From the IMG/VR virus record IMGVR_UViG_3300001605_000009: a DNA stretch of 64,000 bases. One strand, written 5' to 3'. This DNA comes from a virus (Duplodnaviria; Heunggongvirae; Uroviricota; Caudoviricetes). The position numbers and the translations under genes were made by a program. Below the pieces are notes generated by a model. It ran no database searches and was not told where the DNA came from. It worked only from the letters and a program-made list of their open reading frames with translations. Shown one piece after another: positions 6,173 to 62,029 of the stretch; within the stretch, counting starts at the first letter, position 1, and every line of letters starts with the position of its first letter.

Positions 6173-6198
6173 ATTATCTCTCTGCTCTTGATAAAGCC

Positions 6199-6968: not shown

Positions 6969-7209
6969 GTAATAGGCGTTGAATCACGTTTAGTGGCTTA
7001 ACTCCAGTAAAACGCTCTACCTCAGTACCTTCAGCACTTAGAACAATAGTAGTTGGCACAGCACGTACCTCATACTTCTTAGTCAGTTCGTCATGAATAT
7101 CAATATCATACCTAATAACCCTAGTAGGGTCTAAGCCCTCTAGTGTCTTCTTATATGTTTGGCACGGCCCACACCAGGTGGCCGAAAATACCAGCAATGT
7201 ATTACTCAT
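6961..7209 (-). CDS. thioredoxin
   Basis: WCGPC active-site motif in an 82-residue protein. Confidence 0.85.
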   Translation of the reverse strand: MSNTLLVFSATWCGPCQTYKKTLEGLDPTRVIRYDIDIHDELTKKYEVRAVPTTIVLSAEGTEVERFTGVKPLNVIQRLLHG

Positions 7210-8152
7210 AGATTCTCCTTAGTACTCGCGGGATAATCTCACCCGCACGAACTACTTCAACAAGACACCCAATTTCTAGGTCTAGGTCTTGGATGTACTT
7301 CATATTATGCAGTGTAGCTCTAGATACCGTAGCTTCACCGATTACTACAGGCTCTAGAAGCGCGACAGGGCTGACAACACCAGAACGTCCTACTTGCCAA
7401 TCAACACCCAGTAGTTTAGTTAATACTCCACCCTTACGCTCTTTGAGAGCAAAGGCACCACGTGGGTGCTTTGACGTGTACCCAGCTTCATAAAACTTCT
7501 CGTAGTCGTCAATACGAAACACTGTACCATCTTGTGGAAACTCATCAAGAAAGTGTGGGTCAGAAGAAAATACTGTATGAAATCCGTAGCAAGAAGCTAG
7601 CTTTTCCATATCCTCTGACCACGTATCATAAACATGTGGTGTAATACCATACGCAATAAACTGTAGCTCACGAGTCTTAAACTCTTCAACTGACTTTAGG
7701 CTTAAAGCACCGGCAGAATAGTTACGAGCGTTGTCAATAGTCTTTGGAGCCACAACCTCACCAGTAATCTGAGTTACTAGCTCATCCATTGAGCTGAACG
7801 GTATTTCCTGAGGGATAAGAGTACGCATATTAGCAGTAATGTCAAGACCTTCCTTGCCATCACCTCGTGTTAGCGATAGGAAGTGCTTACCCTTACAGTA
7901 GTAGTTACCTACAGCTGCTCCATCTAGCTTACGCGTAGTAGCTACTGCACCGCCTAGACTGATTAAAGGTTCATCATCATAGCATTTCTGCAGGCTCCAC
8001 ATAGGAAAAGCGTGAGCAATCCGATCACCTGTGATCGAAGCACCCACGCTTTCATAGCCATGATACTCCGCTAGTTTATCAAATTCTTCGTCGCTGATGA
8101 TTGGATCACCCGCGTAGTATTTAGAACTTGCATAATCTAGAAAAGCTTTCAT
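7202..8152 (-). CDS. NAD-dependent DNA ligase, N-terminal portion (Ia, adenylation and OB domains)
   Basis: The N-terminus YYAGDPIISDEEFDKL matches the LigA Ia domain. The adenylation motif KLDGAAV (KxDG) and an OB-fold segment (GRSGVVSPVALLEPV) are present. Confidence 0.85.
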   Translation of the reverse strand: MKAFLDYASSKYYAGDPIISDEEFDKLAEYHGYESVGASITGDRIAHAFPMWSLQKCYDDEPLISLGGAVATTRKLDGAAVGNYYCKGKHFLSLTRGDGKEGLDITANMRTLIPQEIPFSSMDELVTQITGEVVAPKTIDNARNYSAGALSLKSVEEFKTRELQFIAYGITPHVYDTWSEDMEKLASCYGFHTVFSSDPHFLDEFPQDGTVFRIDDYEKFYEAGYTSKHPRGAFALKERKGGVLTKLLGVDWQVGRSGVVSPVALLEPVVIGEATVSRATLHNMKYIQDLDLEIGCLVEVVRAGEIIPRVLRRIYE

Positions 8153-21703: not shown

Positions 21704-22498
21704 TCATGCTCCAAGCGCTTCTTCAATTCCTGGGAAGCGCTGCTTTATAATGTCCCAACACTGGTCTGCTACAATCATGTGCTCTAGCTGAGTTCCATTC
21801 GACCGTCTTAGTTGGCAGTAATGAATCCAAGATCGTAGCGTGCCAGCCATAATAATAGTTGATTTTGTACAGCCTTCTGGAAGTACGGCCCGTGCTTGCT
21901 CCTTGGCAATCCCACGATCTGTAGCCCACTTATACGCGAAGTCTGCGGCATTAATTACTGACTTCTGAACAACGTCCCATTCGTCTGCTAGCCGATTCTC
22001 GTCTGGAGAAAGCTTTACAGAGTTCTGTCGGTTCTTCTTATCCTGTAGTCGGGCTTCTCGAAGTATATATCCTAGATCCTTGGTAGGATCAGCGTAGCGC
22101 TGGCTATATTCTTGAAAGCTAAAGCTACGGTGACGTAGCATCTGACGCGCAATGTCCCGAGTTGTCTTAATCTCAATAGACAGAGAAACCATTTCTAGTG
22201 GAGACCAGTGATTTTCTCGAACAAGATACTTTACCAGCTTTGGGCCTGTGGCAGTGTTATTTTGATTAGACGGATTAGAAACCCGCGCAACCCACGCTAC
22301 CAGCTCTTCGGCTGTACTACAACCTGTGTACTCGGTAGGTTGCGAAATACTGATTAAATTTGCTTCACTCAACGTTGAAACTCCATGTATATAAGAAGGC
22401 AAAGGACTACCGCCCAAATACTCGTAGGTACTTGAGACAGCAGTCCTAGCAGGATTAAAATTAATATGATTGGTATCATCTACCAGAGATTCTCCCAT
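21704..22498 (-). CDS. thyX: flavin-dependent thymidylate synthase ThyX
   Basis: ThyX signature RHRSFSFQEYSQRY (RHRx7-8S). Confidence 0.85.
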   Translation of the reverse strand: MGESLVDDTNHINFNPARTAVSSTYEYLGGSPLPSYIHGVSTLSEANLISISQPTEYTGCSTAEELVAWVARVSNPSNQNNTATGPKLVKYLVRENHWSPLEMVSLSIEIKTTRDIARQMLRHRSFSFQEYSQRYADPTKDLGYILREARLQDKKNRQNSVKLSPDENRLADEWDVVQKSVINAADFAYKWATDRGIAKEQARAVLPEGCTKSTIIMAGTLRSWIHYCQLRRSNGTQLEHMIVADQCWDIIKQRFPGIEEALGA

Positions 22499-30948: not shown

Positions 30949-31161
30949 TTACTTTGCTAATTTCTTACCAAGAAGGTAGATGCCGATCCCTGGTAAAGCT
31001 ATAGGCCATAGAAGGGCCAGCCCCAGAGTTCCTATTACGTAAAACATAACTTTACCTGAGTCGATGCTACCACCACGGTTACAGAAAAGACTTTTAGTGT
31101 TCCTCCCGGCGTTAAATACTGAGTAGACTAATACTATAATAAACCCCAGGAGCCAGATCAT
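30949..31161 (-). CDS. small membrane protein with two transmembrane segments (NfeD-like partner of the SPFH protein?)
   Basis: A 70-residue hydrophobic protein whose start overlaps the end of the SPFH gene. Confidence 0.4.
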   Translation of the reverse strand: MIWLLGFIIVLVYSVFNAGRNTKSLFCNRGGSIDSGKVMFYVIGTLGLALLWPIALPGIGIYLLGKKLAK

Positions 31162-31955
31162 TTTACGTTCACAATACCTTTGAAGTCATAGGGAACCACG
31201 ATAGTGCCGACCTTACCTTCTTTGATAGCCTCTGAAATATTAATCAGAGCCTGTGCTTCCATGTACTTGGTAGCACCAGAGTTGGCGTTTAGAGCAGCAA
31301 TACGCTCAGCTTCTAGCTTAGCAGTTCGTACTTCGGCTTCTTTAGTCTTAGTGCCATTCTGTGCCCGAACTAGTTCGTTTGCAGACTCTACAATACTATC
31401 AGCGGCTTGAATATTCTTTACCAGAACCTGAGATACATTGATCGAAGTACCTAGCTTTTCAGCATTAAGCTGATCTACAATTTCTGCACGAACTAGCTGT
31501 TCGATTTCAGCTCGGTTATCTGCCATCTTTAGTGACTCATAGCGACGAGCAACTTTGTATGCAGCGTTACGGGCAAGTTGGTGAATGTAGTTATACATTA
31601 GAAGGGTATCACCTTCTTCTGTTACCTGATGGAATCCACGATTCTTTTCAATGTAAATCTCAGCCGCTGAAGCTGGGTTCACCGAGTAAATAACTGAGAT
31701 ATCAAAGTCCTTGACACTAGAGTTATCGGAAGCTAGAGGATGAAGGTCGACAACATCTACTGACACGTCCTTAACTGGGAAGGTCATAACAGAACCAAAC
31801 ATGGTCTGATTAAGAGTACCTGCACCAAGTTCAGCAGTCTCAACTTGCTTATCCATACCAACTCGAACACCGACTTCACCAGTCTCAATACGAGTACAGG
31901 CCGATGCGGAAACTACTAGACCGGCAAGAAGAGCAAACTTTGTAAAACGATTCAT
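31158..31955 (-). CDS. SPFH (band-7, stomatin/prohibitin-like) domain lipoprotein
   Basis: A signal peptide with Cys (LVVSASAC) is followed by an SPFH-like core and a coiled-coil tail (ADNRAEIEQLVRAEIVDQLN...EAEVRTAKLEAERIAAL). Confidence 0.65.
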   Translation of the reverse strand: MNRFTKFALLAGLVVSASACTRIETGEVGVRVGMDKQVETAELGAGTLNQTMFGSVMTFPVKDVSVDVVDLHPLASDNSSVKDFDISVIYSVNPASAAEIYIEKNRGFHQVTEEGDTLLMYNYIHQLARNAAYKVARRYESLKMADNRAEIEQLVRAEIVDQLNAEKLGTSINVSQVLVKNIQAADSIVESANELVRAQNGTKTKEAEVRTAKLEAERIAALNANSGATKYMEAQALINISEAIKEGKVGTIVVPYDFKGIVNVK

Positions 31956-41528: not shown

Positions 41529-42014
41529 TCATTGTGGACCACAAGGGTCAACAATGATTTGGTGGAATCCCTCATCTAATGTGGGCGGCTGATAGTTACG
41601 ATCCATCTGCCTAAGAATATGCTCTGGAATCCGTTTATCAGGCCTGCTAGCAAGTCGTTCTGCCCAATTATCAGGAATTGGAAAAACAACTGCCGTAAAC
41701 TTATGGTTTGGCAATGCCTTAAACAACCGTGCGCGACTCTTTACTGTTAAGTTTGTACGATCAATGTAAACATCTTCGTTACACCCTTCTAGAAGTTCCC
41801 AAAAATGTGCCTCTGCTTTCTTGATGTATTCTGGGAACACATTATTATATGTTTGTCCTCTAAGCTTAGCAAATAACTCGATAAAATCATCACTAGAAGC
41901 TACAAAGATATTATCTGGTCGGCTGGCAAGCCACGTAGACTTGCCAACTCCAGGAAGACCCACTAAAACATACGCATTAGGCATTATAAATAACTCCTGG
42001 AAACCATTCTGCAC
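41529..42014 (-). CDS. P-loop polynucleotide kinase-like protein (kinase domain of T4 Pnk-type)
   Basis: Walker A motif GLPGVGKST. The gene is small and sits next to the RNA ligase genes. Confidence 0.6.
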   Translation of the reverse strand: MQNGFQELFIMPNAYVLVGLPGVGKSTWLASRPDNIFVASSDDFIELFAKLRGQTYNNVFPEYIKKAEAHFWELLEGCNEDVYIDRTNLTVKSRARLFKALPNHKFTAVVFPIPDNWAERLASRPDKRIPEHILRQMDRNYQPPTLDEGFHQIIVDPCGPQ

Positions 42015-43191
42015 GGATTTCTTCGTACTTACTAGTCTTAGCTAGATTCTTGCGAATAGTATTATAAATTTTTTGCTCACAAACACTAACGGCATCTACG
42101 TACAGAACCTCGTCCCACATAGCAAACGCTATAGATCTATTAAGCCCACTCATTTTATTCGCATATGTGGTCGCGAAAGTCTTCCGATCCATACCACCGA
42201 TACGCCGACAGTTAGATACTTGTGAAACAATAGAGAGTGCCAAAGGATGAATAACTTTATTAAAGTCATTCTCGAACTGAGAAAGACGATCACGCTCTTC
42301 TTGTGGAAGATGCGCTTTCACGTCGTCTAGCTTTTGATCTAGAATAAGTTCAACAATGTGGCGATCCTGTAGAATACGCTCCTTAGCCTTGTGAATCTGC
42401 ACGTACCAGTCACACTTTAGCTTTACCATGTGTCCGTTGTCAAAACGCACAACGAAGCCTTCAGTGTCCTGAAGATCACGAGTGTGCTCAATAAGACCGT
42501 TGATGTGCTCCTGGGACGGGAAGGATTTCACAATTGGGATATTATACTTCTCGATAATAGGATAGTTATTATGAAGGTTGATAATATAACTACCGCGCTC
42601 CATATTACGAATAGCTGTAAGAATCAGACGATCCTCTGGATAGTCTAGAACGATGCGCTGCTTACGTGAGCACCACTCAAAAATAGGAGTAAACCCATTC
42701 TCGATAAGATCACGAGAGAAGTCAATGTAGTGTGGATTGTTATTCACAAACTCCTCAACAGGCTTCGCCACATCAGTAGCACCCATCTTAGTACCGAATA
42801 CTAGAACAGCACGATTAAAGAATGGGGCAATCATTGATCCATCCAGTTTATCCAGAATGATGTGATCCTCATACAGAGGAACATTCTCGGTCTCTGGTCG
42901 TTCGTTTACGTTGAAGAACTTGTGATAAGGACGGCGAAGAATATCGCCCGTTTCGTTGTCAAAGATAATACCCCGACATTCACGACGAGTAGCAGCGTGC
43001 TTAGCATCCGTAAAAGCTAGCTTGTTAAGCTGCTCGCTCCACTCAATCACAGGCGGAAAAGTATCCTCAAACATCACATTGTAGTTGATAACGGTATAAC
43101 CGTCTTTAACAGCCACTACAAATTCACTACGACCTTCAATCGCAGGAAGCACATCACTGATGTTACGAATTACTGGGAATTGATAGTTCAT
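41977..43191 (-). CDS. RNA ligase 1 (T4 RnlA-like)
   Basis: ECRGIIFDNETGDILRRPYHKFFNVNERPET aligns with the T4 Rnl1 segment [34 protein letters not shown]. The nucleotidyltransferase lysine motif DKLDGSM is present. Confidence 0.75.
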   Translation of the reverse strand: MNYQFPVIRNISDVLPAIEGRSEFVVAVKDGYTVINYNVMFEDTFPPVIEWSEQLNKLAFTDAKHAATRRECRGIIFDNETGDILRRPYHKFFNVNERPETENVPLYEDHIILDKLDGSMIAPFFNRAVLVFGTKMGATDVAKPVEEFVNNNPHYIDFSRDLIENGFTPIFEWCSRKQRIVLDYPEDRLILTAIRNMERGSYIINLHNNYPIIEKYNIPIVKSFPSQEHINGLIEHTRDLQDTEGFVVRFDNGHMVKLKCDWYVQIHKAKERILQDRHIVELILDQKLDDVKAHLPQEERDRLSQFENDFNKVIHPLALSIVSQVSNCRRIGGMDRKTFATTYANKMSGLNRSIAFAMWDEVLYVDAVSVCEQKIYNTIRKNLAKTSKYEEIRAEWFPGVIYNA

Positions 43192-43199
43192 TTGTCTCT

Positions 43200-43262
43200 C
43201 CTCTTTGAACCTTTATAGCCCAAAAACGAAAAAAAGTCAAGGCCTATTTTTGGCCTTGACTA
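43200..43262 (-). promoter_or_regulatory. overlapping terminator hairpin and promoter (TTGACT, 17-nt spacer, TATAAA)
   Basis: The minus strand reads GTCAAGGCC-loop-GGCCTTGAC followed by TTTTTTTCG. The TTGACT inside the 3' arm of the hairpin is followed by a 17-nt spacer, TATAAA, a ribosome-binding site and the ATG of the Rnl1-like gene. Confidence 0.55.
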
Positions 43263-43531
43263 ATTCTTTTGTATCGCTGTCGTAACGTAGAAATGACTAT
43301 TTCCCATAGAAACCAAGCACCAAATCCGCCAAATAAGACGTAGGCAGCTAGTGTCTCTCCTAAAAGGTATTCTATACCTAGTTCTACTCCAATTGATAGT
43401 CCACCGACTACTACCACAATAGCTAAAGTTCCTGCTAGAGCCACTCCTAGTAAGATAAAGAAGTCTTTACTTGGAGTAAGTGTCTTTTGTAATGCTTTCC
43501 AATTCATTCTGGCCCACTCCCGTTGCCCCAA
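43244..43531 (-). CDS. small membrane protein
   Basis: Two hydrophobic helices. Confidence 0.4.
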   Translation of the reverse strand: MGQREWARMNWKALQKTLTPSKDFFILLGVALAGTLAIVVVVGGLSIGVELGIEYLLGETLAAYVLFGGFGAWFLWEIVISTLRQRYKRISQGQK

Positions 43532-44160
43532 GCCTTGACAGGCCCAACATATCCTACTACTTCCCAGCGATCCTTAATACGAGCTTCTACTTCGTCGAAG
43601 GACAGAGGCTCGTAGTTAGTGTGCTCTACAGATACACAGAGATAACGCGGGTCAGGAACAGATACTGACTTATATTCACTAGGGTGGGAACTATGGTAAT
43701 CGCTCCAGCCTTTGGATACCATTTTATGCCTAGTCTGCATTACTTCATTGGCATGAAGGTGCCCATGCACGTTAACCTTAAATCGGTCAGTTACGCAGTC
43801 TGGATGCAGCGGAATATGGCTAAGAATAAACTTATCCACAAACACACGAACACCATACATCTTTTCAAAGCCAACTTCCCGATAGTACTTATCATGAAAA
43901 ATATCATGATTACCGCGTACTAGACGCTTCTTACCATTAAGACGTTTTACTAGCTCTAGTGAAGGCTTCTTGATGACAACATCACCAAGATGGTAGACGG
44001 TGTCCTGCGGGCTTACTTTAGCATTCCAACGCTCGATCATGGCCTCGTCCATTTCTTCGTTAGAAGAGAACGGACGTAGAGGATCCCCATTGGGAAGCTT
44101 AAACTTCTGCCACGAATTAGTGTGCCCGAAATGGGTATCACTTATAACAAAGCTGCTCAT
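43504..44160 (-). CDS. calcineurin-like metallophosphoesterase (candidate RNA 2',3'-cyclic phosphodiesterase or 3'-phosphatase in the RNA-repair cluster)
   Basis: Phosphoesterase motifs DTHFGH, GDVV, GNHD and HGHLH. Confidence 0.65.
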   Translation of the reverse strand: MSSFVISDTHFGHTNSWQKFKLPNGDPLRPFSSNEEMDEAMIERWNAKVSPQDTVYHLGDVVIKKPSLELVKRLNGKKRLVRGNHDIFHDKYYREVGFEKMYGVRVFVDKFILSHIPLHPDCVTDRFKVNVHGHLHANEVMQTRHKMVSKGWSDYHSSHPSEYKSVSVPDPRYLCVSVEHTNYEPLSFDEVEARIKDRWEVVGYVGPVKAWGNGSGPE

Positions 44161-44383
44161 TCATATACTCCAATATATCATATAGTACGCTGGTACTGAG
44201 ACCTGTTCGACCTGTTCTTAGATCATCTCGAATACGATCACGAATCATTAGCTCCGCGGCTTCTGCATTCGTGAACATAAAATCATTAAGCTCTTGAAAC
44301 TTCTCAATTTCCTCAAATGAGGGCTCTGGATTATAAGGCTCTCGTGGTTTGTAGGGACCTAAGTCTCTATCATAGTCTGTCAT
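44138..44383 (-). CDS. hypothetical protein (start set to the ATG that overlaps the lipoprotein stop)
   Basis: The ORF in the track begins with TTG. An ATG six nucleotides downstream overlaps the lipoprotein stop as ATGA. Confidence 0.35.
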   Translation of the reverse strand: MTDYDRDLGPYKPREPYNPEPSFEEIEKFQELNDFMFTNAEAAELMIRDRIRDDLRTGRTGLSTSVLYDILEYMNEQLCYK

Positions 44384-44556
44384 GAGCAAGTATCTGGCAT
44401 ATCATAACCCGCAGAATACTTAGGGGCTATCCCATTGTCTGACCCCTGCCAGTATGCTACACCATCTATGCATATAATTTCATATTTAGGTTTAGGGGTT
44501 GGCTCACTGCAACCCGAGAGTAGACCTAGACATAGAATAATTACTGGATATTTCAT
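44380..44556 (-). CDS. small lipoprotein (58 residues, lipobox LLSGC)
   Basis: MKYPVIILCLGLLSGCSEPTPKPKY... It is below the 60-residue ORF cutoff of the track. Its ATG overlaps the Rnl2-like stop as ATGA. Confidence 0.45.
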   Translation of the reverse strand: MKYPVIILCLGLLSGCSEPTPKPKYEIICIDGVAYWQGSDNGIAPKYSAGYDMPDTCS

Positions 44557-45569
44557 GAATTAATCCTTTTAATAAACCAAGGGCGAGCCTTGTTAGCAAT
44601 TGGTCCACCAAGCTTCTTAGGATCAAACCCAGAGGCTACAATAGTATCGGTTTCTTCCTTTACAACATCGTTGTAGACCCAACGAATGAAGTCACCCATT
44701 GAAGTCATATCTAGGGGCTTTAGTTGCTCACGAACTAGGTTATCAACACCCTGTTCTAGACGTTGCTCGGTAACTGTAGTGTCAACGAAGTCCTTGAGAG
44801 CTTGAACGGCTTCAACGTCTACAGCAGCTAGAGTCTTAACCTTAGATGCTGAGTGCTTTTCACCCTTTACCTTGAAACGAAGACCTTCCCAACCTGGTGT
44901 AACGCAGGTCCAAACAACACCTTCTCCGACACCAGATACACCGAAAGCCTTGCCCACAGGGCATTCGTTTTCGACGGCTTCTGTGATTTCGATCATGCGG
45001 TTCTGTGCTAGTTCAGGATGTGCGAAGTCAATGTCAAGCTCCCACATTGGAAACTCCTCAATGTCACGAACACCTGGAATATCAGTAAACTCAGTTTCTC
45101 CAGATAGAGGGTCACTCCAGAGCTCTGTACCGTCTTGTTCAATAAACTTCACTGCGAAGATGACAAACATCTTAGGCAGTTCACTAACAGCCACACCACG
45201 TTGAATGCCTTGTCCACACCACTCACCGTATACGGCAATCTTGCGCACACTTGGGTGGCTCATAGTACCAAAGAATTCTAGCCACTTTTTCTCGTACTTC
45301 ATCTGTGCTAGCATGAAGCCAGCGTTATCCTGAGTAAGACTTAGCACCCGTTCACGAGACTGATAAGAAAGTTCTTGTGAAACATAATCGTACACTACAG
45401 CTGCGTTTGTACCGTGAAGCTTCACAGTACCATGAAACTTCAGAGTTGGAAGCTCCCGTGTATGGTCATAGATTGGCTGGCCTGTATCATCCTTACCGAC
45501 ATAGCGGTGTGACGCCTTCACATGATGAATGACGTTGCGAAACTGCTCGATTGATGGAAACTTAATCAT
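44553..45569 (-). CDS. RNA ligase 2-like nucleotidyltransferase (start corrected to an internal ATG with a ribosome-binding site)
   Basis: KLHGTN matches the KxHGTN lysine motif of T4 Rnl2. The promoter at 45578-45640 and the ribosome-binding site taaggagat place the start at 45569 rather than 45752. Confidence 0.65.
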   Translation of the reverse strand: MIKFPSIEQFRNVIHHVKASHRYVGKDDTGQPIYDHTRELPTLKFHGTVKLHGTNAAVVYDYVSQELSYQSRERVLSLTQDNAGFMLAQMKYEKKWLEFFGTMSHPSVRKIAVYGEWCGQGIQRGVAVSELPKMFVIFAVKFIEQDGTELWSDPLSGETEFTDIPGVRDIEEFPMWELDIDFAHPELAQNRMIEITEAVENECPVGKAFGVSGVGEGVVWTCVTPGWEGLRFKVKGEKHSASKVKTLAAVDVEAVQALKDFVDTTVTEQRLEQGVDNLVREQLKPLDMTSMGDFIRWVYNDVVKEETDTIVASGFDPKKLGGPIANKARPWFIKRINS

Positions 45570-45577
45570 TCTTATCT

Positions 45578-45640
45578 CCTTAACAAAACAAATATAGCCC
45601 ATCAACCGAGAAAAGTCAAGGGCTATTGAAAGGCTTGGTC
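45578..45640 (-). promoter_or_regulatory. sigma70 promoter with TTGACT, a 17-nt spacer and TATATT
   Basis: The minus strand reads caatagcccTTGACTtttctcggttgatgggcTATATT. Confidence 0.55.
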
Positions 45641-45775
45641 CATAAAGTCGTAATATGCCTGTGTAATCAAAAGTGATTAGTGTATAATCATCTGACATGA
45701 AGGCATACTCGTTTATCTCGTCTGCGTAGCACCTAGGTTCCGTCCGGTCCATACGTAAATATCATCCGGCATTGT

Positions 45776-46497: not shown

Positions 46498-46694
46498 GTT
46501 AAAATCTCCTTCACAACGTCTTCCAGAGTGTCAAAATCGCCTGTGAAATTATCACAGTCAAAGTACCCGCCGCCTTCTCCACGAAAGCCCTCTAGATCAT
46601 GCTGCTCTAGCAACTTAATGCACAGCTCGTTATTGAAGAAACGAACAGACATTGATCCATCACCGCAGTCTACAGCTGTATAAAAGATTCTCAT
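46494..46694 (-). CDS. hypothetical protein
   Basis: ORF only. Confidence 0.3.
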   Translation of the reverse strand: MRIFYTAVDCGDGSMSVRFFNNELCIKLLEQHDLEGFRGEGGGYFDCDNFTGDFDTLEDVVKEILT

Positions 46695-46891
46695 GACATA
46701 TACTCCTGGATTTCTTCTTGTGCTTCTGATACTGCTGAGGCAATCTGCTCAAAGTAGTAGCTAAGGCTATCGGCCACGGATTCTTTAGCAACATCCAGCT
46801 GGTTTTCTAGCTTTCGTACGTCCCTCTCTAGACGGTCGATTTTGGACTGAAGCTCGTTCACCCAGGCCTTGTAATAAAGAACTTCATCCAC
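46691..46891 (-). CDS. hypothetical coiled-coil protein
   Basis: ORF only. Confidence 0.3.
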   Translation of the reverse strand: MDEVLYYKAWVNELQSKIDRLERDVRKLENQLDVAKESVADSLSYYFEQIASAVSEAQEEIQEYMS

Positions 46892-46943
46892 GTTTCTTCC
46901 TCCCTTTGTTTAATGCCTTAATTGCTAGTGTAGGTGGAGCGGT

Positions 46944-47051
46944 TCAGGTAAAGTGAACTCCTGCCCCACCACATCCGGGACAGTCCCACCATTGAAGTTT
47001 ATTAGAAGTAGTCAAAAGATTGCCAGAGCCTTTACAGACAACACAGATCAT
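46944..47051 (-). CDS. 35-residue zinc-ribbon mini-protein
   Basis: MICVVCKGSGNLLTTSNKLQWWDCPGCGGAGVHFT, with the ribosome-binding site aaggagac upstream. It is not in the ORF track. Confidence 0.35.
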   Translation of the reverse strand: MICVVCKGSGNLLTTSNKLQWWDCPGCGGAGVHFT

Positions 47052-47115
47052 TTCCTGTCTCCTTAAACAATAATATAGCCCGTTAACCTTTGAAAGTCAA
47101 CGGGCTATTTAAGTT

Positions 47116-48492
47116 TTACTTGATTTCAGCGCGTTTTCGAATGTCCTCGAAAGTTTGCTGCTTAGGGACTTCTCCGTCTACAAAGACTACTCGAAGATAG
47201 TCACCTACTGTTTCATAGTCGTCTTCATGATTACTTACTGTAAAGTACTCGTTGTAGAATGTTTTACCTAACTTCAGCAAGCCCCGCTTAGAGCGCTTAC
47301 CACTATCAGTGACTGGATCTTTATAAACATCAACCCATTTGCCGTTGATCTTAGCAGCTGAGCACTTCATGGCGAATTTAAAATCGTCTCGATTAACGAT
47401 CTGAAGAAGCGCGCCGCCCTGACCAAAGACTACGTTATCAGCACTGAAGTCGTGTGCTGCTAGATTGTCTAGAATAGCACGAATAGAGTCGATGTTGATA
47501 CCGTCACCCTGCAATACGCGAACGTTATTAAGAACCTTAAAGCCCTTTTCGTTTACAGTGTAGCCGAAGTATTCTGCTAGAATGCTTACGCAGTCTAGTA
47601 CTACTTTCTTTGGCTCTCCAGAGTCCGGACGAACAACAAGAGTAGCGCCGCTGTCTAGAACATCCTGCTTTAGTACTGTACCCCACAGCTTGCAGGCTTC
47701 ATAGATATTGTAGCTGTCTGAAACAGCGGATACAATACCACCTGGCTTACCATTCTTCTTAACCATGTTACGGTACGCGTCAACTTCGTTTTCGCGACCC
47801 CAACTGGTTACAGTGCTATGTTCCATAGCGGGAACACTGAACCCAGCCATATCAGCACCATAGTGGCGACGAGCAAAGAGCAGAGCTTCAATAGTGTCAG
47901 TACCCATGAAGTTGACAAGATGCGCTGCTCCGCCAATTCCAGCCGACTCAAGCGAGCTAACACCGCGAGAACCAAAGTCATGAAGCTTAAAGCTAATATC
48001 AGCAGGAGTTCCAGTGCGAACGAGAGCATCTAGAATGACCTTCTTAATTTCGCGGCTATTGGTAGCCACAGTTGTAGGATACCAGATCGCTCGAAGAAGC
48101 GCGGTTTCTAGGAACGACGTCAACCACCAGCAATTTGGATCAGTATTCTCAATAGTGGCGAGCACGTTATGAGTTGGCACGACAGTGCCCTCATGTACAG
48201 CTGTGATAAGAACAGGAAGACGACCGTCATGCTCACGAACAATGTACTCCCAACCCTCACGGTTGAAAGGCTCACCATGTGCTAGAATGATGGCTTCCGC
48301 TTCATCAATCATTTCCATAGTGATAGGTTCCATCAAGTATTCTTGAATGAATGCCTGAAGACCAAAGAACACAGTTTCGTCGTACTTGCCACCACGGCTT
48401 TCGATGTAGCTATATACGATTTCAGTACCTTCGGGGTACTGGTTAAATTGGCTGTATTTGTAGCTATCGCTGTTTAGGATAATGTTTTTCAT
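47116..48492 (-). CDS. nadV: nicotinamide phosphoribosyltransferase (NadV/NAMPT)
   Basis: A 458-residue protein with an NAMPT-like N-terminus (LNSDSYKYSQFNQYP) and overall family architecture. Confidence 0.8.
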   Translation of the reverse strand: MKNIILNSDSYKYSQFNQYPEGTEIVYSYIESRGGKYDETVFFGLQAFIQEYLMEPITMEMIDEAEAIILAHGEPFNREGWEYIVREHDGRLPVLITAVHEGTVVPTHNVLATIENTDPNCWWLTSFLETALLRAIWYPTTVATNSREIKKVILDALVRTGTPADISFKLHDFGSRGVSSLESAGIGGAAHLVNFMGTDTIEALLFARRHYGADMAGFSVPAMEHSTVTSWGRENEVDAYRNMVKKNGKPGGIVSAVSDSYNIYEACKLWGTVLKQDVLDSGATLVVRPDSGEPKKVVLDCVSILAEYFGYTVNEKGFKVLNNVRVLQGDGINIDSIRAILDNLAAHDFSADNVVFGQGGALLQIVNRDDFKFAMKCSAAKINGKWVDVYKDPVTDSGKRSKRGLLKLGKTFYNEYFTVSNHEDDYETVGDYLRVVFVDGEVPKQQTFEDIRKRAEIK

Positions 48493-48540
48493 GTTGGTTT
48501 CCCTTTTGATGCCTCATTATATGAAATTTCAGCTAATTGG

Positions 48541-49014
48541 TCAAGCCCAATATTTAGTAATGTATGTGATTAGGTCTTCCAAACTATCAACCACATTAAG
48601 ATCATATACGCTAGAAACAATATCTACATTTCCTTTACGCCAGAACGGATCAGGACAGTATACAATAGCCTGTTGTCCCATTCCAGCAACAAGGCCAAGC
48701 TCTAGTAGAGTAATTGGTGATTTTGTACTTGGATCAAATACAAATACTACCAGATCACTGTTTTCAATACCAGATAGCTCCCATAGTACTTGCTCTTGAA
48801 ACTGTTCGTTATCAATAGATTGAGTCCAACTGCTGTCCCAATCATCCCTACGAGGATTAAGGAAGGTAATATCACTATTCTGAAAATGACTAACTAATTC
48901 ATCTTGCCAGTTGATAGCTGTACCCATTTCAATAGAGCCAGCTAGAAAGATTAAAGTATTAAACTCATCAAACTCATTTGGGGCTTTAATTACTTGCATA
49001 TACTGTTGTTCCAT
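48541..49014 (-). CDS. nucleoside 2-deoxyribosyltransferase-like or Rcl-like protein
   Basis: The IFLAGSI motif and a Rossmann-like fold resemble the deoxyribosyltransferase/LOG superfamily. Confidence 0.45.
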   Translation of the reverse strand: MEQQYMQVIKAPNEFDEFNTLIFLAGSIEMGTAINWQDELVSHFQNSDITFLNPRRDDWDSSWTQSIDNEQFQEQVLWELSGIENSDLVVFVFDPSTKSPITLLELGLVAGMGQQAIVYCPDPFWRKGNVDIVSSVYDLNVVDSLEDLITYITKYWA

Positions 49015-49202
49015 TACAGCTCACTCGCATAGGGCGAATAGGCTTTCTATTTACTAGTACTTCGACGTCGCTCTTACCTACAGTTTCCCAGATACGATAA
49101 GTAGGAATATCAGGAACTTCTAGTCCCGATCGTAGCGCTGTCCAGCATTGCCCTGCGTACACCCACTGTACACAGAGCATATCATTTCGTGTTTTCTTAC
49201 CT

Positions 49203-49703
49203 TCAGACATTTGTAAACTCCACTAATGTTGCTGATCCACCCTTAAGCTCTTTAGCAAACTCTTCTAGCATTGAAATGATACGATCCTTATCTCCACCAG
49301 CTAGGCCCATTCCAATGTAAGGAAAGCCAAAGTCGTAGTTTGGATAAAGATGCAAAAGCTTCTGTAGAATAACAGCGAAACTGGCATATTCAAAGTGGTC
49401 CTTACCCCGTGGTAGGTAGTCGTACTGTGTATACGCGTTCACAATAGTAAAACTCCCAACCCTAGTATGTGTGAAGTTTCCTAGCTTTAGATATGGAATG
49501 AGCTTTTTCTTCTCGTGATAAGCCGTATCTACATCGTATGCAGACGGAAAGCGCTCTCGAATCTCTTTAGCAATACCACTTCCCATAGTATTCTTGCAAT
49601 TGCAGCCATGAACGATAATATCGAACTTACCGCGCTCTGCTAGAGTGAGAAGGTTTCCTTTAGTGTGCTGTAGCATCTTGAGACCACTCCCAGTATTTAT
49701 CAA
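49203..49703 (-). CDS. Macro domain protein (ADP-ribose binding or ADP-ribosylhydrolase)
   Basis: DIIVHGCNCKNTMGSGIAKEI matches the Macro domain glycine-rich ADP-ribose-binding loop. Confidence 0.6.
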   Translation of the reverse strand: MINTGSGLKMLQHTKGNLLTLAERGKFDIIVHGCNCKNTMGSGIAKEIRERFPSAYDVDTAYHEKKKLIPYLKLGNFTHTRVGSFTIVNAYTQYDYLPRGKDHFEYASFAVILQKLLHLYPNYDFGFPYIGMGLAGGDKDRIISMLEEFAKELKGGSATLVEFTNV

Positions 49704-49959
49704 GTTTTTCTAGCTCTCTCGAGCCTATAGCAATAATATCCGAGTCTGGGAAATTATTAGCAATAAAGAAGTTTAGAGCGGCGGATACGTCTGCTAATTC
49801 TTCAATAAGATTCTGGCCGAGATCAGCGCCACCCCAATAGGCTAACTCCCCACCGTTCCCTATGATTTTACTCAGAACAGTTTGAAGCTCTCCCATCTCC
49901 TCTTGAAGTTTAGACAACCCTCTCCATGAATCTGTTGATTTAATTCTGTACATCACCAA
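49660..49959 (-). CDS. MazG-like nucleotide pyrophosphohydrolase
   Basis: The EEMGEL and IEELADV acidic motifs are typical of MazG/HisE family proteins. Confidence 0.5.
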   Translation of the reverse strand: MVMYRIKSTDSWRGLSKLQEEMGELQTVLSKIIGNGGELAYWGGADLGQNLIEELADVSAALNFFIANNFPDSDIIAIGSRELEKLDKYWEWSQDATAH

Positions 49960-50144
49960 CTCCTAATAATTGCTTGATGACCACAATTAGGGCAGTCTAC
50001 CCACTCGTGTCCATCAGGACCGCCACTGTAGTCCCTACCACGGTACTCTTTCACTTCACAGAGCTTGTACTCTAGAATAGAAGCACATCCGCGACAGGTA
50101 ATCCGCTTCACAGCTGACTCGTCTCGTCCTACAACTTTAACCAT
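49953..50144 (-). CDS. zinc-ribbon protein
   Basis: CRGC...CPNCGH motif. Confidence 0.4.
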   Translation of the reverse strand: MVKVVGRDESAVKRITCRGCASILEYKLCEVKEYRGRDYSGGPDGHEWVDCPNCGHQAIIRSW

Positions 50145-51189
50145 TTAGTAGTTCCTTAATGATATGATAATGATCGTCGAACATAACACTTTCATCTAGC
50201 TCAGAGATATTAATCCAGCCAGCTGAGACAGCATCATCTGCGCCAACCACATCAGGTCGTTTACCCATCCAGCTAATATCAAAGTAAAAACAGTGACTTA
50301 CAGTATGTCCCATAGTTGAGCGACCTGGATGATCGGCAATGAACAGCTTTGGCTTCCCACTAAGTAGTAGGTCATCCTTAGTAAGTTGCAAACCAGTTTC
50401 TTCAAGCAGCTCACGAAGTGAGCCAGCTAGTGTGCGCTCGCCCGCATTAAGATGGCCCCCAGGAAGAGCTAGAAGCCCCTTACCGGGGTGTTTTCCACGC
50501 TCTACAAGCAGAATCTGGTCGTTATATCGAACCACAGCATCTACAGTGATCTGCTTAACAGGATACGGGGAAGAAGACCACAACTCTGTGTTTATATCAA
50601 TTTCTGTCTGCCAATCAGACATGTAGTTGATAAAACCTAGCTCAGAGTTAGTAATTACGTCTACTGTGCTCCATGGGAGGTTATCTAGCTGTAGCGAAAA
50701 GTCTCGGAAGAGTTCTTCACGAATATCAGTGGCATTCAGCGGGGCATCAATAGCCCACTCTACTAGATCATAGTTTGGGAACATATCAAGGTAGTAGCTA
50801 GACTCGTCCTTACGGGCACCGATGATGCCAATCTTGAGGTCAGCAGTACCATTGTTGTGAAATCCATCAGGATTGGCAACGTCTAGTGCTGTGAACTTGA
50901 TAGCTTCTCTTACTTCGGCAGCCCATGCACTATCATCATAGGGCTGGTCCCGAATAGCGTCTGTATATAGATTTGTGCCTTCAGGATAAGAAGCTAGAAT
51001 CATATCAGAGCGCTCTTCATAGGTCCATGGATTCTTTGGAGTACGCGCACCACCAGAACTTCCAATAAGAACTAGGACGTTCTTGGCTTTGGTAAAAGCA
51101 TGGTCGATCACACTCTTGTGACCCTTATGAAACGGCTGAAAGCGTCCGATGTATACTAGAAGGTCGTACATTATTATCTCCTTATGCAC
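50137..51189 (-). CDS. bifunctional NMN adenylyltransferase and Nudix ADP-ribose pyrophosphatase (NadM-Nudix, NatV-like)
   Basis: Nucleotidyltransferase motif GRFQPFHKGH at the N-terminus and Nudix box GGHLNAGERTLAGSLRELLEETG at the C-terminus. Confidence 0.85.
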   Translation of the reverse strand: MHKEIIMYDLLVYIGRFQPFHKGHKSVIDHAFTKAKNVLVLIGSSGGARTPKNPWTYEERSDMILASYPEGTNLYTDAIRDQPYDDSAWAAEVREAIKFTALDVANPDGFHNNGTADLKIGIIGARKDESSYYLDMFPNYDLVEWAIDAPLNATDIREELFRDFSLQLDNLPWSTVDVITNSELGFINYMSDWQTEIDINTELWSSSPYPVKQITVDAVVRYNDQILLVERGKHPGKGLLALPGGHLNAGERTLAGSLRELLEETGLQLTKDDLLLSGKPKLFIADHPGRSTMGHTVSHCFYFDISWMGKRPDVVGADDAVSAGWINISELDESVMFDDHYHIIKELLNG

Positions 51190-51222
51190 TGATAATACAA
51201 AATTTAAGCAGTTGAGTCAACA

Positions 51223-51459
51223 CTATTTACTAACGACCCAGTAAGCAAGTGCGAGAGGCCCTAGACAAGCTAATCCGGCTAGAAACATAGGAATGGTGGC
51301 TGGCCAAAGTAACCCAAAGAAAAAGCTACCTATAGCTATAGCCTCTCGTTCAGCTGTATCTATTTCTTCTCCCTTACGAATAAATGTTAGGAATTTTAGA
51401 TATACGTAGGCAGATAGAGGGGCTAATATAATAAAGCCAATAAACCAACTAACAATCAT
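51223..51459 (-). CDS. small membrane protein
   Basis: Hydrophobic ORF. Confidence 0.3.
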   Translation of the reverse strand: MIVSWFIGFIILAPLSAYVYLKFLTFIRKGEEIDTAEREAIAIGSFFFGLLWPATIPMFLAGLACLGPLALAYWVVSK

Positions 51460-51697
51460 AGTTGCGCTCCAGGTACTCTTTTAAGTCCTCTTGAGACATT
51501 TTGAGATTCTCTTCTGTCTGCTTTTGAATTGCCTCTAAGATAATCTCATTTCTTACTTTAATGGAATCGCCCCGAAAGCATTGACTAAGTTTCGACCGTA
51601 GATTGGAAACTTCTAGTCTTAGCGCTATGATCTCTTCTTTCAGGTCGTTGATAGTTTCTACCCTACCCCAGTCTTCTGGATCATTTATACTCATCAA
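51449..51697 (-). CDS. hypothetical coiled-coil protein
   Basis: ORF only. Confidence 0.3.
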   Translation of the reverse strand: MMSINDPEDWGRVETINDLKEEIIALRLEVSNLRSKLSQCFRGDSIKVRNEIILEAIQKQTEENLKMSQEDLKEYLERNYDC

Positions 51698-52388
51698 TAG
51701 CCTTTCGTTTTCCTAATATGTCTAAAATTACAGAGATAAATCCCTCATTAGAGGAATCTATATGGTGACTCACGTGTCTATGCTCTCCACCAGTTAAAAT
51801 ACCAAATACTAATCCTCTATTGATAGCACCACTATCGTCGTGATTAAAGGTAGACCACGACAAGGTTACCAGAGCGCAAGCTGCTGGAACCAGCCACAGA
51901 AATAGAAGGGCCTTCAAAGAAATTAGTAGTAACAATACTGGTAAGCACACTAGTATCCAGTAGTGACGCTGAAAGAACATAACTCTAGGATTCTTACTTA
52001 ACCTAGCAATTGTTCGATAGTCTCCCTTATCTTTATCTACCCAAAAGAGTGGAAAAGCGGCTCTCCAACCTATGTATTTTGGAGAGTGAGGATCACGATT
52101 CGTGTCTACGTATTTATGGTGATTAATGTGTATAGAGGCTGCCTCTAGTGGAGTTGACATACTACCATAGAACCCAAAAGCTAGACATATAAATTCTATA
52201 GCTGGGTGAAACTTGTGTGTTTGATGGGTTATTACTCTATGATAAGTAGCTGTATACCCAACACACCTAAATAGAAAAAATACTAGAATAGATACTAGTG
52301 CCCAACCTAGGGTTATAAAGTATAAAGACGCTAAGGCTAGTATAGGCAGCGTTATCTGCAATATAAACAGAAATAGAGCCTTATTCAT
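51681..52388 (-). CDS. membrane di-iron His-box enzyme (fatty acid desaturase or hydroxylase family)
   Basis: Three histidine boxes (HRVITHQTH, HINHHKY and HRHVSHH) and multiple transmembrane segments. Confidence 0.5.
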   Translation of the reverse strand: MNKALFLFILQITLPILALASLYFITLGWALVSILVFFLFRCVGYTATYHRVITHQTHKFHPAIEFICLAFGFYGSMSTPLEAASIHINHHKYVDTNRDPHSPKYIGWRAAFPLFWVDKDKGDYRTIARLSKNPRVMFFQRHYWILVCLPVLLLLISLKALLFLWLVPAACALVTLSWSTFNHDDSGAINRGLVFGILTGGEHRHVSHHIDSSNEGFISVILDILGKRKAIDEYK

Positions 52389-52926
52389 AGAGGCCTCTAC
52401 TTCTCAACATATCAAATATCCACTGCTTGTTATCTCTCCAGAATCTAGCAGAGCGTAGACCCTCAGTAGAAGCTACATATCGTTTATCTCGTGTTTCAAA
52501 GTATTCCATAGTATTAAACTCGCACCCTACATGCATCCAGCCATTATCTAGAGCTGTAATTGGGTACTCTATTCCATCAATAATAAGTGGAGGGGAGTTG
52601 ATGATGGTTCCCTTCCAATGCACATTTTCAAAGTTTGTGCCAGTAAAGTCTACGGTACTAAGGAGAGTATCATCCATAGTACAGGAGTCTAGCACACAGT
52701 TTTTGAACTGAGAGCGGAAAATATAAGCATTACTAAACTCACATAGGGTGAAGCTACAGTTAGTGAACTTTGTGCCAGTGATATAGGCATTTAGGTCACA
52801 CCCATGAAATGTACAATTAGAGAACTCCGCCCCGTACATATCAGCATTCTTGAGAGTACAGTTAGAGAAGACTACACCAGTATAGTCTTCATAGCGCATG
52901 TTTTTAAAGGTATGATTCTCAATCAC
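52381..52926 (-). CDS. pentapeptide-repeat protein
   Basis: Tandem A(D/N)LxX-type repeats (FSNCTLKNADMYGAEFSNCTFHGCDLNAYITGTKFTNCSFTLCEFSNAYIFRSQFKNCVLDSCT). Confidence 0.7.
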   Translation of the reverse strand: MIENHTFKNMRYEDYTGVVFSNCTLKNADMYGAEFSNCTFHGCDLNAYITGTKFTNCSFTLCEFSNAYIFRSQFKNCVLDSCTMDDTLLSTVDFTGTNFENVHWKGTIINSPPLIIDGIEYPITALDNGWMHVGCEFNTMEYFETRDKRYVASTEGLRSARFWRDNKQWIFDMLRSRGLYE

Positions 52927-61390: not shown

Positions 61391-61598
61391 GTGCTCTGTA
61401 ATCAAGTATAGATTGCAATTCGATTATTTCCCGCAATGTCCTTTGTTTCTCCATGTTTGCAGTATAAAGATCAACAATGATTGACGAAATCAGATCCTCT
61501 TGTAGTGCTAGTTTGTCCTCTGCACAGTCAAGCTGCAATTCTAGTGGTTCCTCGTTCATGCCGCTAACTTTCCGTTTTGCTTTACAGCGTTGAAACAA
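61386..61598 (-). CDS. hypothetical small protein
   Basis: ORF with a terminator at its end. Confidence 0.4.
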   Translation of the reverse strand: MFQRCKAKRKVSGMNEEPLELQLDCAEDKLALQEDLISSIIVDLYTANMEKQRTLREIIELQSILDYRAH

Positions 61599-62029
61599 GT
61601 AATACCGATTGAAAGCATTGCGTCAATTACTTTCAAGTTATCGTCAAACATAATTGCGCAAGCATCCTTTGCACAAGAAAAGCCTTCGCCCGCAAAGTAT
61701 GCTTCTAGCAGATCAACTTTCAATTGCGCGTCCCCGCGCATATCGTTAACGCCGCGCGACAAGAAAACATCATGTTCTAGTCCATGCTTTTCAAGGAACA
61801 AATGGTTGCTTTCATGTGGCGAACGCGCCGTGCAAATGATAACCGTATGGCCAGCCTTTTTAATCTGTTTCATGCTTTTTGCAAGTGGCAAAAGCGAGTC
61901 ACCCATAATTTTCTCATGGGTATTATTCTCCAGCCAGTGCGCAAGATTAAGCGAGCCATCGGGCAACGTGTTTTGACGGTGGCTTGAGTCGATAACCGTG
62001 CCATCCAAGTCGAAAATTACATAAGCCAT
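61556..62029 (-). CDS. HAD-superfamily 5'-nucleotidase (deoxyribonucleoside 5'-monophosphatase-like, comparable to T5 dmp)
   Basis: HAD motif I FDLDGTV at the N-terminus. The gene is small and located in a pre-early-like island. Confidence 0.65.
   Translation of the reverse strand: MAYVIFDLDGTVIDSSHRQNTLPDGSLNLAHWLENNTHEKIMGDSLLPLAKSMKQIKKAGHTVIICTARSPHESNHLFLEKHGLEHDVFLSRGVNDMRGDAQLKVDLLEAYFAGEGFSCAKDACAIMFDDNLKVIDAMLSIGITCFNAVKQNGKLAA

Follow-up and report, generated by a model that had tools for sequence, protein, structure and literature searches.

Depletion of NAD+ is among the most widespread bacterial strategies against phages, and the reconstitution of NAD+ by phage-encoded enzymes represents the main counter-measure known. 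In NAD+ reconstitution pathway 2 (NARP2), composed of a nicotinamide phosphoribosyltransferase (Nampt) and a nicotinamide mononucleotide (NMN) adenylyltransferase (Nmnat), the homologues from Vibrio phage KVP40 rebuild NAD+ from nicotinamide, phosphoribosyl pyrophosphate (PRPP), and ATP, and these two proteins, NadV and NatV, counter several NAD+-depleting defences (bioRxiv 10.1101/2024.02.11.579819). NARP2 draws on PRPP, produces NAD+ in excess, and is toxic in E. coli; NARP1 operates independently of PRPP and causes no such excess of NAD+ (bioRxiv 10.1101/2024.02.11.579819). Furthermore, NARP2 alone cancels the RES-based system aRES (bioRxiv 10.64898/2026.01.28.702374). The locus described here is a predicted NARP2 operon with additional genes, located at positions 47116–51189 (minus strand) of the Caudoviricetes record IMGVR_UViG_3300001605_000009, the analyzed stretch of which comprises 64,000 nucleotides and is referred to as the window.

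Genes inserted into NAD+ reconstitution operons were previously described for NARP1. The NARP1-AP operon (Adps-Adpp-Namat) of Vibrio phage Gary encodes Adpp, a Poa1p-like Macro protein present in 15% of NARP1 operons, which dephosphorylates the ADP-ribose-1''-phosphate (ADPR-1''P) made by aRES and renders it usable by NARP1 (bioRxiv 10.64898/2026.01.28.702374). RyDEP, encoded in the NARP1 operon of phage DyoEdafos, linearises 2'/3' cyclic ADP-ribose (2'/3'cADPR) and fuels NAD+ synthesis (PMC13232231). Moreover, Iyer et al. (2022) described NADAR genes adjoining NadM and NadV, e.g., in phage XacN1 (PMC9503650). In the locus analyzed here, the NARP2 core is already known, and the new part is a conserved layer of accessory genes, namely a Macro subfamily that appears specific for NARP2 and a nucleoside deoxyribosyltransferase-like (NDT-like) protein that sequence comparisons place in both NARP1 and NARP2 operons.

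Gene order and NARP2 core

Seven co-directional genes were found on the minus strand between positions 47116 and 51189, their domains being assigned by Pfam, PHROG, and NCBIfam scans. In minus-strand order, they encode NatV, an Nmnat-Nudix (NadM-Nudix) protein (50137–51189; 350 aa, with the likely true start being the ATG at 51171, yielding 344 aa); directly after it, a Zn-ribbon protein featuring a CxxC...CxxC pattern (49953–50144; 63 aa); a MazG-like protein (49660–49953; 97 aa; longer open reading frame (ORF) 49660–49959); the Macro protein (49203–49676; 157 aa; longer ORF 49203–49703); orf74, which fills the gap between Macro and the NDT-like gene (48986–49210; 74 aa); the NDT-like protein of family PF15891 (48541–49014; 157 aa); and NadV, the Nampt (47116–48492; 458 aa). 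All five genes named in an earlier sequence-only reading were recovered at their positions and on the minus strand, together with two ORFs that this reading did not mention, the Zn-ribbon ORF and orf74.

Adjacent reading frames share between 1 and 29 nt, with the exception of NadV, which is preceded by a 48-nt gap. NatV lies upstream of NadV, with a distance of 1.6 kb (start to stop) and five ORFs between them. A predicted sigma-70-like promoter (TTGACT-17-TATTAT; 51192–51220, minus strand) lies just upstream of NatV and scored 10/12 in the consensus scan, and an internal promoter-like site (TTGACC-17-TATAAT; 48516–48544, minus strand; 11/12) falls into the gap before NadV. Eight nucleotides past the NadV stop codon, an intrinsic-terminator-like hairpin with a 15-bp stem and a T-rich tail was predicted (47075–47108, minus strand), representing the sole terminator-like site within 46500–52000. 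These three signals are pattern and consensus matches only. The same seven genes were obtained by independent gene calls on the metagenome contig ENA ERZ27315062 (106 kb), which encodes an identical MazG-like protein; these calls placed the NatV start at 51171 (344 aa) and gave 97 aa for MazG and 157 aa for Macro. The search with the identical MazG-like protein also returned a second metagenome contig of 126.9 kb. Judged from gene spacing and predicted signals, the block from NatV to NadV is one promoter-to-terminator unit, that is, an operon of a large uncultured phage.

NadV matched the Pfam families NAMPT_N (8.8e-31) and NAPRTase (1.5e-57) and reached 638 bits against the NCBIfam model NF006629 (cut-off 405). 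Its best PDB match was a bacterial NAMPT aligned end-to-end (7yqo, 1e-165), followed by further NAMPT entries at approximately 1e-126; the corresponding bit scores were 554 for the bacterial NAMPT, about 423 for most other NAMPT entries, and 229–259 for the most distant entries named 'nicotinamide phosphoribosyltransferase'. The identity to a NARP1 Namat-like protein was 36%. By these comparisons, NadV appears to resemble the canonical NAMPT that uses PRPP more than it resembles Namat. The motifs KLHDFGSRG, RPDSGEP, QGDGI, and FGQGGALLQ, which presumably fulfil catalytic roles in NAMPT, were all present. NatV was recognized by the Pfam models CTP_transf_like (1.2e-9) and NUDIX (1.5e-14) and matched the NCBIfam models of bifunctional NMNAT/Nudix proteins over its full length (3e-80), below their equivalog cut-offs. 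Its HxGH motif (GRFQPFHKGH; H21 and H24), T154-x-x-R157, and a perfect Nudix box (GX5EX7REUXEEXGU, residues 245–267) were intact and invariant in an alignment with five phage homologues. The inspection of catalytic residues on alignment hence found the motifs of both core enzymes preserved. The Nudix domain of NatV is probably an ADP-ribose (ADPR) pyrophosphatase, an activity established for NadM-Nudix enzymes and consistent with the names of the NCBIfam families.

Three Adps/Prs-like proteins used as tblastn queries gave no match in the 64-kb window, and no Prs Pfam family was found among the scanned ORFs; neither NADAR nor a second Namat was detected in the window. The core is predicted to be NARP2, not NARP1, and looks active. 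The nicotinamide-to-NAD+ route proposed in the sequence-only reading for NadV and the NMNAT-Nudix protein corresponds to published NARP2, and the countering of NAD+-depleting defences, likewise proposed there, was demonstrated experimentally for homologues. NAD+ synthesis and rescue from NAD+ depletion by NadV and NatV are established for the KVP40 proteins and can be predicted by homology for the window locus.

An NAD+ consumer of the phage itself is also encoded in the window, namely an NAD+-dependent DNA ligase (5420–8152, minus strand). Its N-terminal ORF (7202–8152; PHROG 3359, 1.8e-94) and C-terminal ORF (5420–6172, minus strand; PHROG 3498, 3.3e-58) are split by an HNH endonuclease gene (6237–6968), which may reflect an inserted intron or homing endonuclease or, alternatively, a ligase made of two parts.

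Conservation and nature of the accessory genes

The prevalence of the block was evaluated in three samples from IMG/VR, comprising the 80 loci closest to the window NatV, the 80 closest Macro relatives, and the 80 closest NDT relatives. In the NatV-seeded sample, a Macro homologue (49–65% identity) occurred in 26 loci, and in 25 of these it shared the strand of NatV and NadV and occupied the interval separating them; the Zn-ribbon was found in 11 loci and the MazG-like gene in 7. In the Macro-seeded sample, 64 of the 80 loci featured NatV as well as NadV at a distance of up to 6 kb, 8 featured one of them, and 8 neither, so that 72 of the closest Macro relatives adjoin at least one of the two genes. 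They nearly always lie between the two, and the order is invariably NatV-...-Macro-(NDT)-NadV. Among 107 unique intervals between NatV and NadV, 61 carried Macro, 17 the Zn-ribbon, 13 the NDT-like gene, and 7 the MazG-like gene, the latter always between NatV and Macro; these counts are inflated, as the loci were gathered with Macro and NDT queries besides NatV.

The block of NatV, Macro, and NadV was found on contigs ranging from 90 kb to 512 kb, and the genes flanking it in the window were almost never encountered in the NatV- or Macro-seeded loci, indicating that the block is kept while its surroundings are not. The 35.6-kb contig L167, whose NDT protein is 82% identical, carries NatV, a 46-aa ORF, Zn-ribbon, Macro, NDT, a 242-aa ORF, and NadV. 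Macro and the NDT-like protein lie outside the classical two-gene module, as stated in the sequence-only reading, and the finding that numerous unrelated contigs carry them in this same place points to a functional link with it.

Macro homologues of at most 40% identity were not linked to NARP genes, indicating that the link is specific to the subfamily. INPHARED contained no phage Macro above 40% identity, and LR756500, harbouring its closest Macro homologue (40%), was discarded as a relative with no NARP genes nearby. When the 4.3-kb region was compared with isolated phages by megablast, the sole match was a 99-bp patch shared with Aeromonas phages; isolated phages thus offer neither a close relative nor an annotated reference for the locus. 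NatV and NadV directly adjoin each other in numerous isolated phages and in some IMG/VR contigs, examples of such pairs being L001–L003, RcXuper, and LucasX.

Other contents of the interval were also recorded. The jumbo Ralstonia phage RsoM2USA (L007, 4299–8700) features a 4.6-kb interval with the tellurite-resistance-type genes TerD, TerC/DUF475, TerF-like vWA, and TelA, as well as a stand-alone Nudix gene. In Xanthomonas phage XacN1, GNAT, NTase, and NADAR genes lie between NatV and NadV, confirming the published position of NADAR. A radical SAM family of about 320 aa (PF04055, 8e-8) was located between NatV and Macro or NadV in 7 distinct loci (including L188 and L153), small families of about 80, 88, and 62 aa recurred, and an HNH-type family was present in some intervals.

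The Macro protein reached 17.2 bits against the Pfam family Macro (PF01661), which is under the gathering score of 22. The Macro fold was nevertheless confirmed by sequence and model comparison: the protein matched PHROG 335 ('phosphatase', T4 Tk.4 family) with 4e-43, its best PDB sequence match was yeast Poa1p (1.3e-5 with the single sequence, 4.7e-6 with the profile), and the AlphaFold2 model (pLDDT 91) retrieved the Macro-domain structures of DarG, Poa1p, and TARG1 as top Foldseek matches at about 3e-8. In 37 family members, the segment HGCNCxNTMGSGIA is almost invariant and reproduces the Poa1p segment HSCNCNGSWGGGIA. The second half contains the invariant motifs NAYTQ..PRGxDHFEY and PYIGMGLAGGD; at the positions of NAYTQ.. 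and PYIGMGLAGGD, Poa1p and the NARP1-linked Macro of the IMG/VR locus L225, which is 28% identical to the window protein, read LFTS.. and INSG(I/L)FG. The window Macro is, by its sequence motifs, a distinct subfamily related to Poa1p and Adpp, and the divergent second half implies that the exact substrate may differ. For most subfamily members no Pfam hit is precomputed, and surveys based on Pfam may have overlooked the subfamily for this reason.

The NDT-like protein matched PF15891 (Nuc_deoxyri_tr2) with 1.9e-35, above the gathering threshold, and is thereby assigned to the NDT fold. In the profile search against the PDB, 4mcj (BDI_0649) was found with 2e-34, the next entry being the CMP N-glycosidase 4jen at 0.085. 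Invariant residues are E79, E105 (ELG), R55 and R56 (NPRR), Q75, and W78, with E105 being aligned with the Glu of 'hiEiG' in 4jen; by analogy with the NDT family, E105 may be catalytic. The protein is proposed to be an active N-glycosidase or transferase acting on a phosphorylated ribosyl compound. To our knowledge, no PF15891 member has a known substrate.

In the Macro-seeded sample, the NDT-like gene was present in 8 loci, always directly after Macro and before NadV as in the window, and it was found directly upstream of NadV in approximately 13 NARP2 loci overall. In the NDT-seeded sample, 18 of the 80 loci carry a NadV-like gene at a distance of no more than 6 kb. Six of these 18 loci possess no NatV, and their NadV-like protein is only 32–34% identical; the three distinct architectures among them that were checked by Pfam were all NARP1 operons. 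One of these, L225 (3274–6917), encodes Prs-like (Adps), Namat-like, NADAR, NDT, and Macro proteins, whereas the gene orders are Prs-like, ..., Namat-like, NDT in L250 and NDT, ..., Prs-like, Namat-like in L218. As a separate observation, NADAR, the NDT-like protein, and Macro represent three different folds processing ADP-ribosyl or N-glycosidic compounds, which follow each other in the single NAD+ reconstitution locus of L225. In a rough neighbour-joining tree of low resolution, the NARP-linked NDT copies occupied at least six places among copies that were not NARP-linked, suggesting repeated association rather than a single inheritance.

Further NDT-like genes were encountered outside these settings. 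In the loci L176 and L239, whose NDT proteins form the sister group of the window NDT in the neighbour-joining tree, the genes for a NatV homologue and an NDT-like protein precede one for a NadV-like protein with just 33–36% identity; these loci may represent hybrid or divergent NAD+ reconstitution modules. In Tunturiibacter phage Tunturi_5, gp225 (L005, 5989–9777; 1262 aa), annotated as 'MutT/NUDIX hydrolase' and encoded next to the portal gene, consists of an N-terminal PF15891 domain fused to an ART-PolyVal ADP-ribosyltransferase, which is another tie of this family to the chemistry of NAD+ and ADP-ribosylation. Isolated phages were also considered as carriers of an NDT-like gene beside NAD+ genes; this arrangement was not found in the Alishewanella and Erythrobacter phages or in Tunturi_5, and in Caulobacter phage CcrColossus and Brevundimonas phage Kabachok, which encode NARP2, a distance of about 7 kb and the use of opposite strands separate the NDT-like gene from NadV/NatV, representing a loose link only.

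Regarding the small ORFs, the Zn-ribbon protein matched PHROG 2834 (1.5e-14) and, weakly, Zn-ribbon families of Pfam. The MazG-like protein was recognized only by PHROGs, namely 25433 (1e-11) and, both annotated as nucleoside triphosphate (NTP) pyrophosphohydrolase, 4856 (4.5e-8) and 2245 (7e-5); its invariant motifs E18 E19 x G E22 and E51 E52 x x D55 conform to the EExxE...EExxD pattern. No Pfam match up to an E-value of 5 and no PDB match in sequence or profile searches was obtained for it, and only one out of eight relatives reached E = 0.089 in Pfam. A large-scale protein search likewise provided nothing decisive in favour of the assignment. The MazG-like label of the sequence-only reading hence stands on the PHROG matches and motifs, on evidence that remains thin. 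For orf74, the Pfam, PHROG, and NCBIfam scans yielded no match, and neither did tblastn in about 260 related loci. It was called by the independent gene caller on the near-identical contigs, is absent from the syntenic relative L167, and appears lineage-specific and possibly not a real gene.

Proposed role of the accessory genes

We consider it on balance probable that the locus is an extended NARP2 operon in which the accessory proteins convert non-canonical breakdown products of NAD+ into ADPR. NadV would form NMN from nicotinamide and PRPP, and the NMNAT domain of NatV would adenylate NMN to NAD+, so that the core would restore NAD+ destroyed by defences of the SIR2, TIR, SEFIR, or RES type. 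Macro would strip the 1''-phosphate, or another small 1''/2''-linked group, from ADPR derivatives released by non-canonical NAD+-cleaving defences, and the NDT-fold protein would hydrolyse the N-glycosidic bond in an NAD+- or ADPR-related compound containing ribose-5'-phosphate. Both reactions would yield free ADPR, which the Nudix domain of NatV would split into AMP and ribose-5-phosphate; host Prs and kinases could turn these into ATP and PRPP, offsetting the PRPP cost of NARP2. The MazG-like protein, as a putative NTP pyrophosphohydrolase, and the Zn-ribbon protein would be further recurrent accessories.

We infer this accessory enzymology from the folds, the conserved residues, and the position kept by the genes. 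The genes between NatV and NadV probably belong to the counter-defence pathway, because numerous uncultured phages carry them at this place. Moreover, Adpp (bioRxiv 10.64898/2026.01.28.702374) and RyDEP (PMC13232231) are precedents for inserted accessories fuelling NAD+ synthesis.

Several points weigh against this reading. Its main weakness is that NARP2 has no strict need for ADPR; NARP2 alone cancels aRES, so that the restoration of NAD+ in itself does not require an ADPR-1''P phosphatase. The 64-kb window contains no gene for a PRPP synthetase, which makes the proposed recycling loop dependent on host enzymes. Given its divergent second half, Macro may act on a substrate other than that of Poa1p. 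About three quarters of the closest NDT-like relatives are located elsewhere in large phage genomes, and the interval between NatV and NadV can hold unrelated cargo in other phages (Ter genes, homing endonucleases). The assignment of the MazG-like protein, supposed to be an all-alpha NTP pyrophosphohydrolase-like protein, is weak and, at moderate confidence, the weakest of the gene calls. Alternatively, the accessory genes may serve to eliminate toxic products or signals derived from ADPR, or may fulfil other functions.

A rather unlikely variant assigns the PF15891 protein, and perhaps the divergent Macro, the role of an adapter which cleaves an N-glycosidic ADPR conjugate to ADPR and in this way would both destroy an immune signal or product and fuel NAD+ resynthesis. 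Candidate substrates are canonical or N7-cADPR, His-ADPR, or a so far undescribed breakdown product of NAD+. If true, an adapter shared by NARP1 and NARP2 would point to an undescribed NAD+-directed defence chemistry, as Adpp pointed to aRES.

It is improbable that the accessory genes represent unrelated cargo in an insertion hot spot, i.e., that the gap between NatV and NadV tolerates inserts acting independently of NAD+ reconstitution. The 107 unique intervals vary in length from 17 to 7146 bp, they harbour such different inserts as the Ter genes and Nudix of RsoM2USA, the GNAT, NTase, and NADAR genes of XacN1, and the HNH-type and radical SAM families, and Macro domains are generally common in large phages. 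However, the Macro subfamily is almost confined to this position amid unconserved flanks, a property which its distant homologues do not share, and the NDT-like gene is linked independently to NARP1 and NARP2, beside NADAR and Macro.

The sequence-only reading had also expected the cluster to reverse ADP-ribosylation, which would assign Macro an anti-DarTG-type function in removing macromolecular modifications (DarT-type thymidine ADP-ribosylation or protein ADP-ribosylation). This role is now disfavoured and considered quite improbable. The DarG macrodomain 5m31 ranked first in the Foldseek search (3e-8), with Poa1p (3.4e-8, 23% identity) and TARG1 close behind, and weak matches were obtained to the NCBIfam DarG model (8.7e-5) and, by profile, to Mtb DarG in the PDB (8e-6). 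On the other hand, the profile alignment to 5m3i places an invariant Gln (TQ, Q84; 37 family members) at the Lys of the DarG TK motif, which we take to be the catalytic residue of DarG and TARG1. Identity is highest to Poa1p (22–24%), and the positions mutated in PDB 6lfs and 6lft, H23 and S30 of Poa1p, are retained in the window subfamily, where they read H23 and T30. Furthermore, a macromolecular target would leave the strict embedding of the gene in an NAD+ salvage operon unexplained. Owing to the Gln and the retained Poa1p positions, Macro is more likely a hydrolase of a small-molecule ADPR derivative, as proposed here.

Similarly doubtful is a role in precursor supply or homeostasis. In this model, the MazG-like protein (NTP to nucleoside monophosphate, NMP) and the NDT-like protein would not process defence products but supply ribose-5-phosphate for PRPP or limit a toxic overproduction of NAD+ and NMN by NARP2, the NDT-like protein converting NMP to base and ribose-5-phosphate or acting as an NMN or NAD+ nucleosidase. 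The PRPP consumption, NAD+ overproduction, and toxicity of NARP2 would fit such a function, and the closest characterised relatives of the NDT-like protein in sequence and fold include the NMP N-glycosidases 4jen, MilB, and Rcl. Yet the NDT-like gene also accompanies NARP1, which needs no PRPP and causes no overproduction, and the MazG-like and NDT-like genes rarely share an interval.

Just downstream of the NAD+ operon, an RNA-repair-like cluster was identified (41529–45752, minus strand), comprising genes for an AAA_33 kinase (41529–42014), an Rnl1-like RNA ligase (41977–43191), a metallophosphoesterase (43504–44160), and a second RNA ligase (44553–45752; PF09414), all on the minus strand. 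In L167, an RNA ligase, a metallophosphoesterase, and Rnl1 also follow NadV in synteny with the window. Macro and the MazG-like protein might serve these enzymes, with Macro clearing ADPR-1''P or ADP-ribose-1'',2''-cyclic phosphate (ADPR>p) formed by a 2'-phosphotransferase of the KptA/Tpt1 type. Poa1p acts in yeast tRNA splicing (bioRxiv 10.64898/2026.01.28.702374). Published neighbourhoods combine tRNA ligase, kinase, MazG, and calcineurin-like phosphoesterase. This explanation is highly improbable: the ORFs scanned in the window included no gene for KptA, 2H, or a sirtuin, and Macro stays between NatV and NadV at loci with no RNA ligases nearby. In addition, the T4-type Rnl/PNK pathway is not known as a source of ADPR-1''P. 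A reading of the locus as NARP1 or as KptA-type RNA repair is disfavoured, as no NARP1, NADAR, or KptA/sirtuin genes were found in the window.

Neighbouring genes and relation to known systems

Directly upstream of the operon (51681–52926, minus strand), a fatty-acid-desaturase-like membrane protein (51681–52388; PF00487, 1.8e-9) and a pentapeptide-repeat protein (52381–52926, minus strand) are encoded, an unusual pair for a phage. A giant ORF of 2324 aa (11626–18600, minus strand) had no PHROG match at E ≤ 1e-5. Further annotated genes of the window are those for a ThyX thymidylate synthase (21704–22498), an SPFH/Band-7 protein (31158–31955), and a PNKP-type HAD phosphatase (61556–62029), all on the minus strand.

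The studies on Adpp and RyDEP showed that extra genes of NARP1 operons are adapters, each of which revealed a new defence chemistry or a new destruction of a signal. More than 60 distinct related loci now indicate that NARP2 operons, too, carry conserved inserts. The substrate of the NDT-like protein, once identified, could expose a further mode of NAD+-based immunity, assign a function for the first time within a family of thousands of proteins, and yield components for building phages able to escape defences that target NAD+.

Within the searchable literature, full-text searches found no paper joining NARP2 with a Macro domain or PF15891 with NAD+ reconstitution, and a Macro accessory (Adpp) was described there for NARP1 only. 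The aRES study does not mention Macro genes in NARP2, and its supplements contain neither PF15891 nor NADAR (bioRxiv 10.64898/2026.01.28.702374). Iyer et al. (2022) reported that viral members of the DrHyd superfamily are only ADP-ribosyl-cyclase-like (PMC9503650), which implies that PF15891 proteins are not covered there. For the fold group of PF15891/4mcj, NDT, Rcl/DNPH1, and the MilB/BcmB N-glycosidases, the link to NAD+ reconstitution operons is new here.

Compared with the NARP2 prototype of KVP40, the window locus agrees in both enzymes, in their domain architectures and intact motifs, and in their location on one strand; no Adps was found in the window, and the predicted chemistry is identical (nicotinamide and PRPP to NMN to NAD+). 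However, classical NARP2 consists of two adjacent genes, whereas five ORFs are inserted in the window; the Macro, NDT-like, Zn-ribbon, and MazG-like inserts among them are conserved accessories not described for NARP2 before. The NadM/NadV-NADAR neighbourhoods (PMC9503650) likewise feature a domain processing ADP-ribosyl compounds between or beside NadM and NadV, but this domain is NADAR instead of Macro or NDT.

RyDEP represents a conceptual precedent for the NDT-like gene, being an inserted glycosidase that turns ADPR-based molecules into linear ADPR. Its RyR/R12 fold is unrelated to the Rossmannoid NDT/DrHyd fold of the NDT-like protein, and it cleaves O-glycosidic ribose-ribose bonds, whereas an enzyme of the NDT fold is expected to cleave N-glycosidic bonds. 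With yeast Poa1p (an ADPR-1''-phosphate phosphatase; PDB 6lfq and 6lfr) and DarG/TARG1, the window Macro shares the fold at a TM-score of about 0.7, and with Poa1p also the N-terminal H-x-C-N-C-x3-4-G-x-G-I-A; F152 of Poa1p is replaced by Ala, and the invariant PRGxDHFEY segment is the own feature of the window subfamily. In NARP1-AP, a Macro related to Poa1p is likewise placed inside an NAD+ reconstitution operon. The window differs from NARP1-AP in that its predicted pathway is NARP2, which makes no direct use of ADPR and already beats aRES, that its Macro belongs to a different subfamily, and that no Adps was found in it. The likeness would lie in the logic, i.e., the conversion of a non-canonical product of NAD+ cleavage, such as ADPR-1''P, into a usable substrate.

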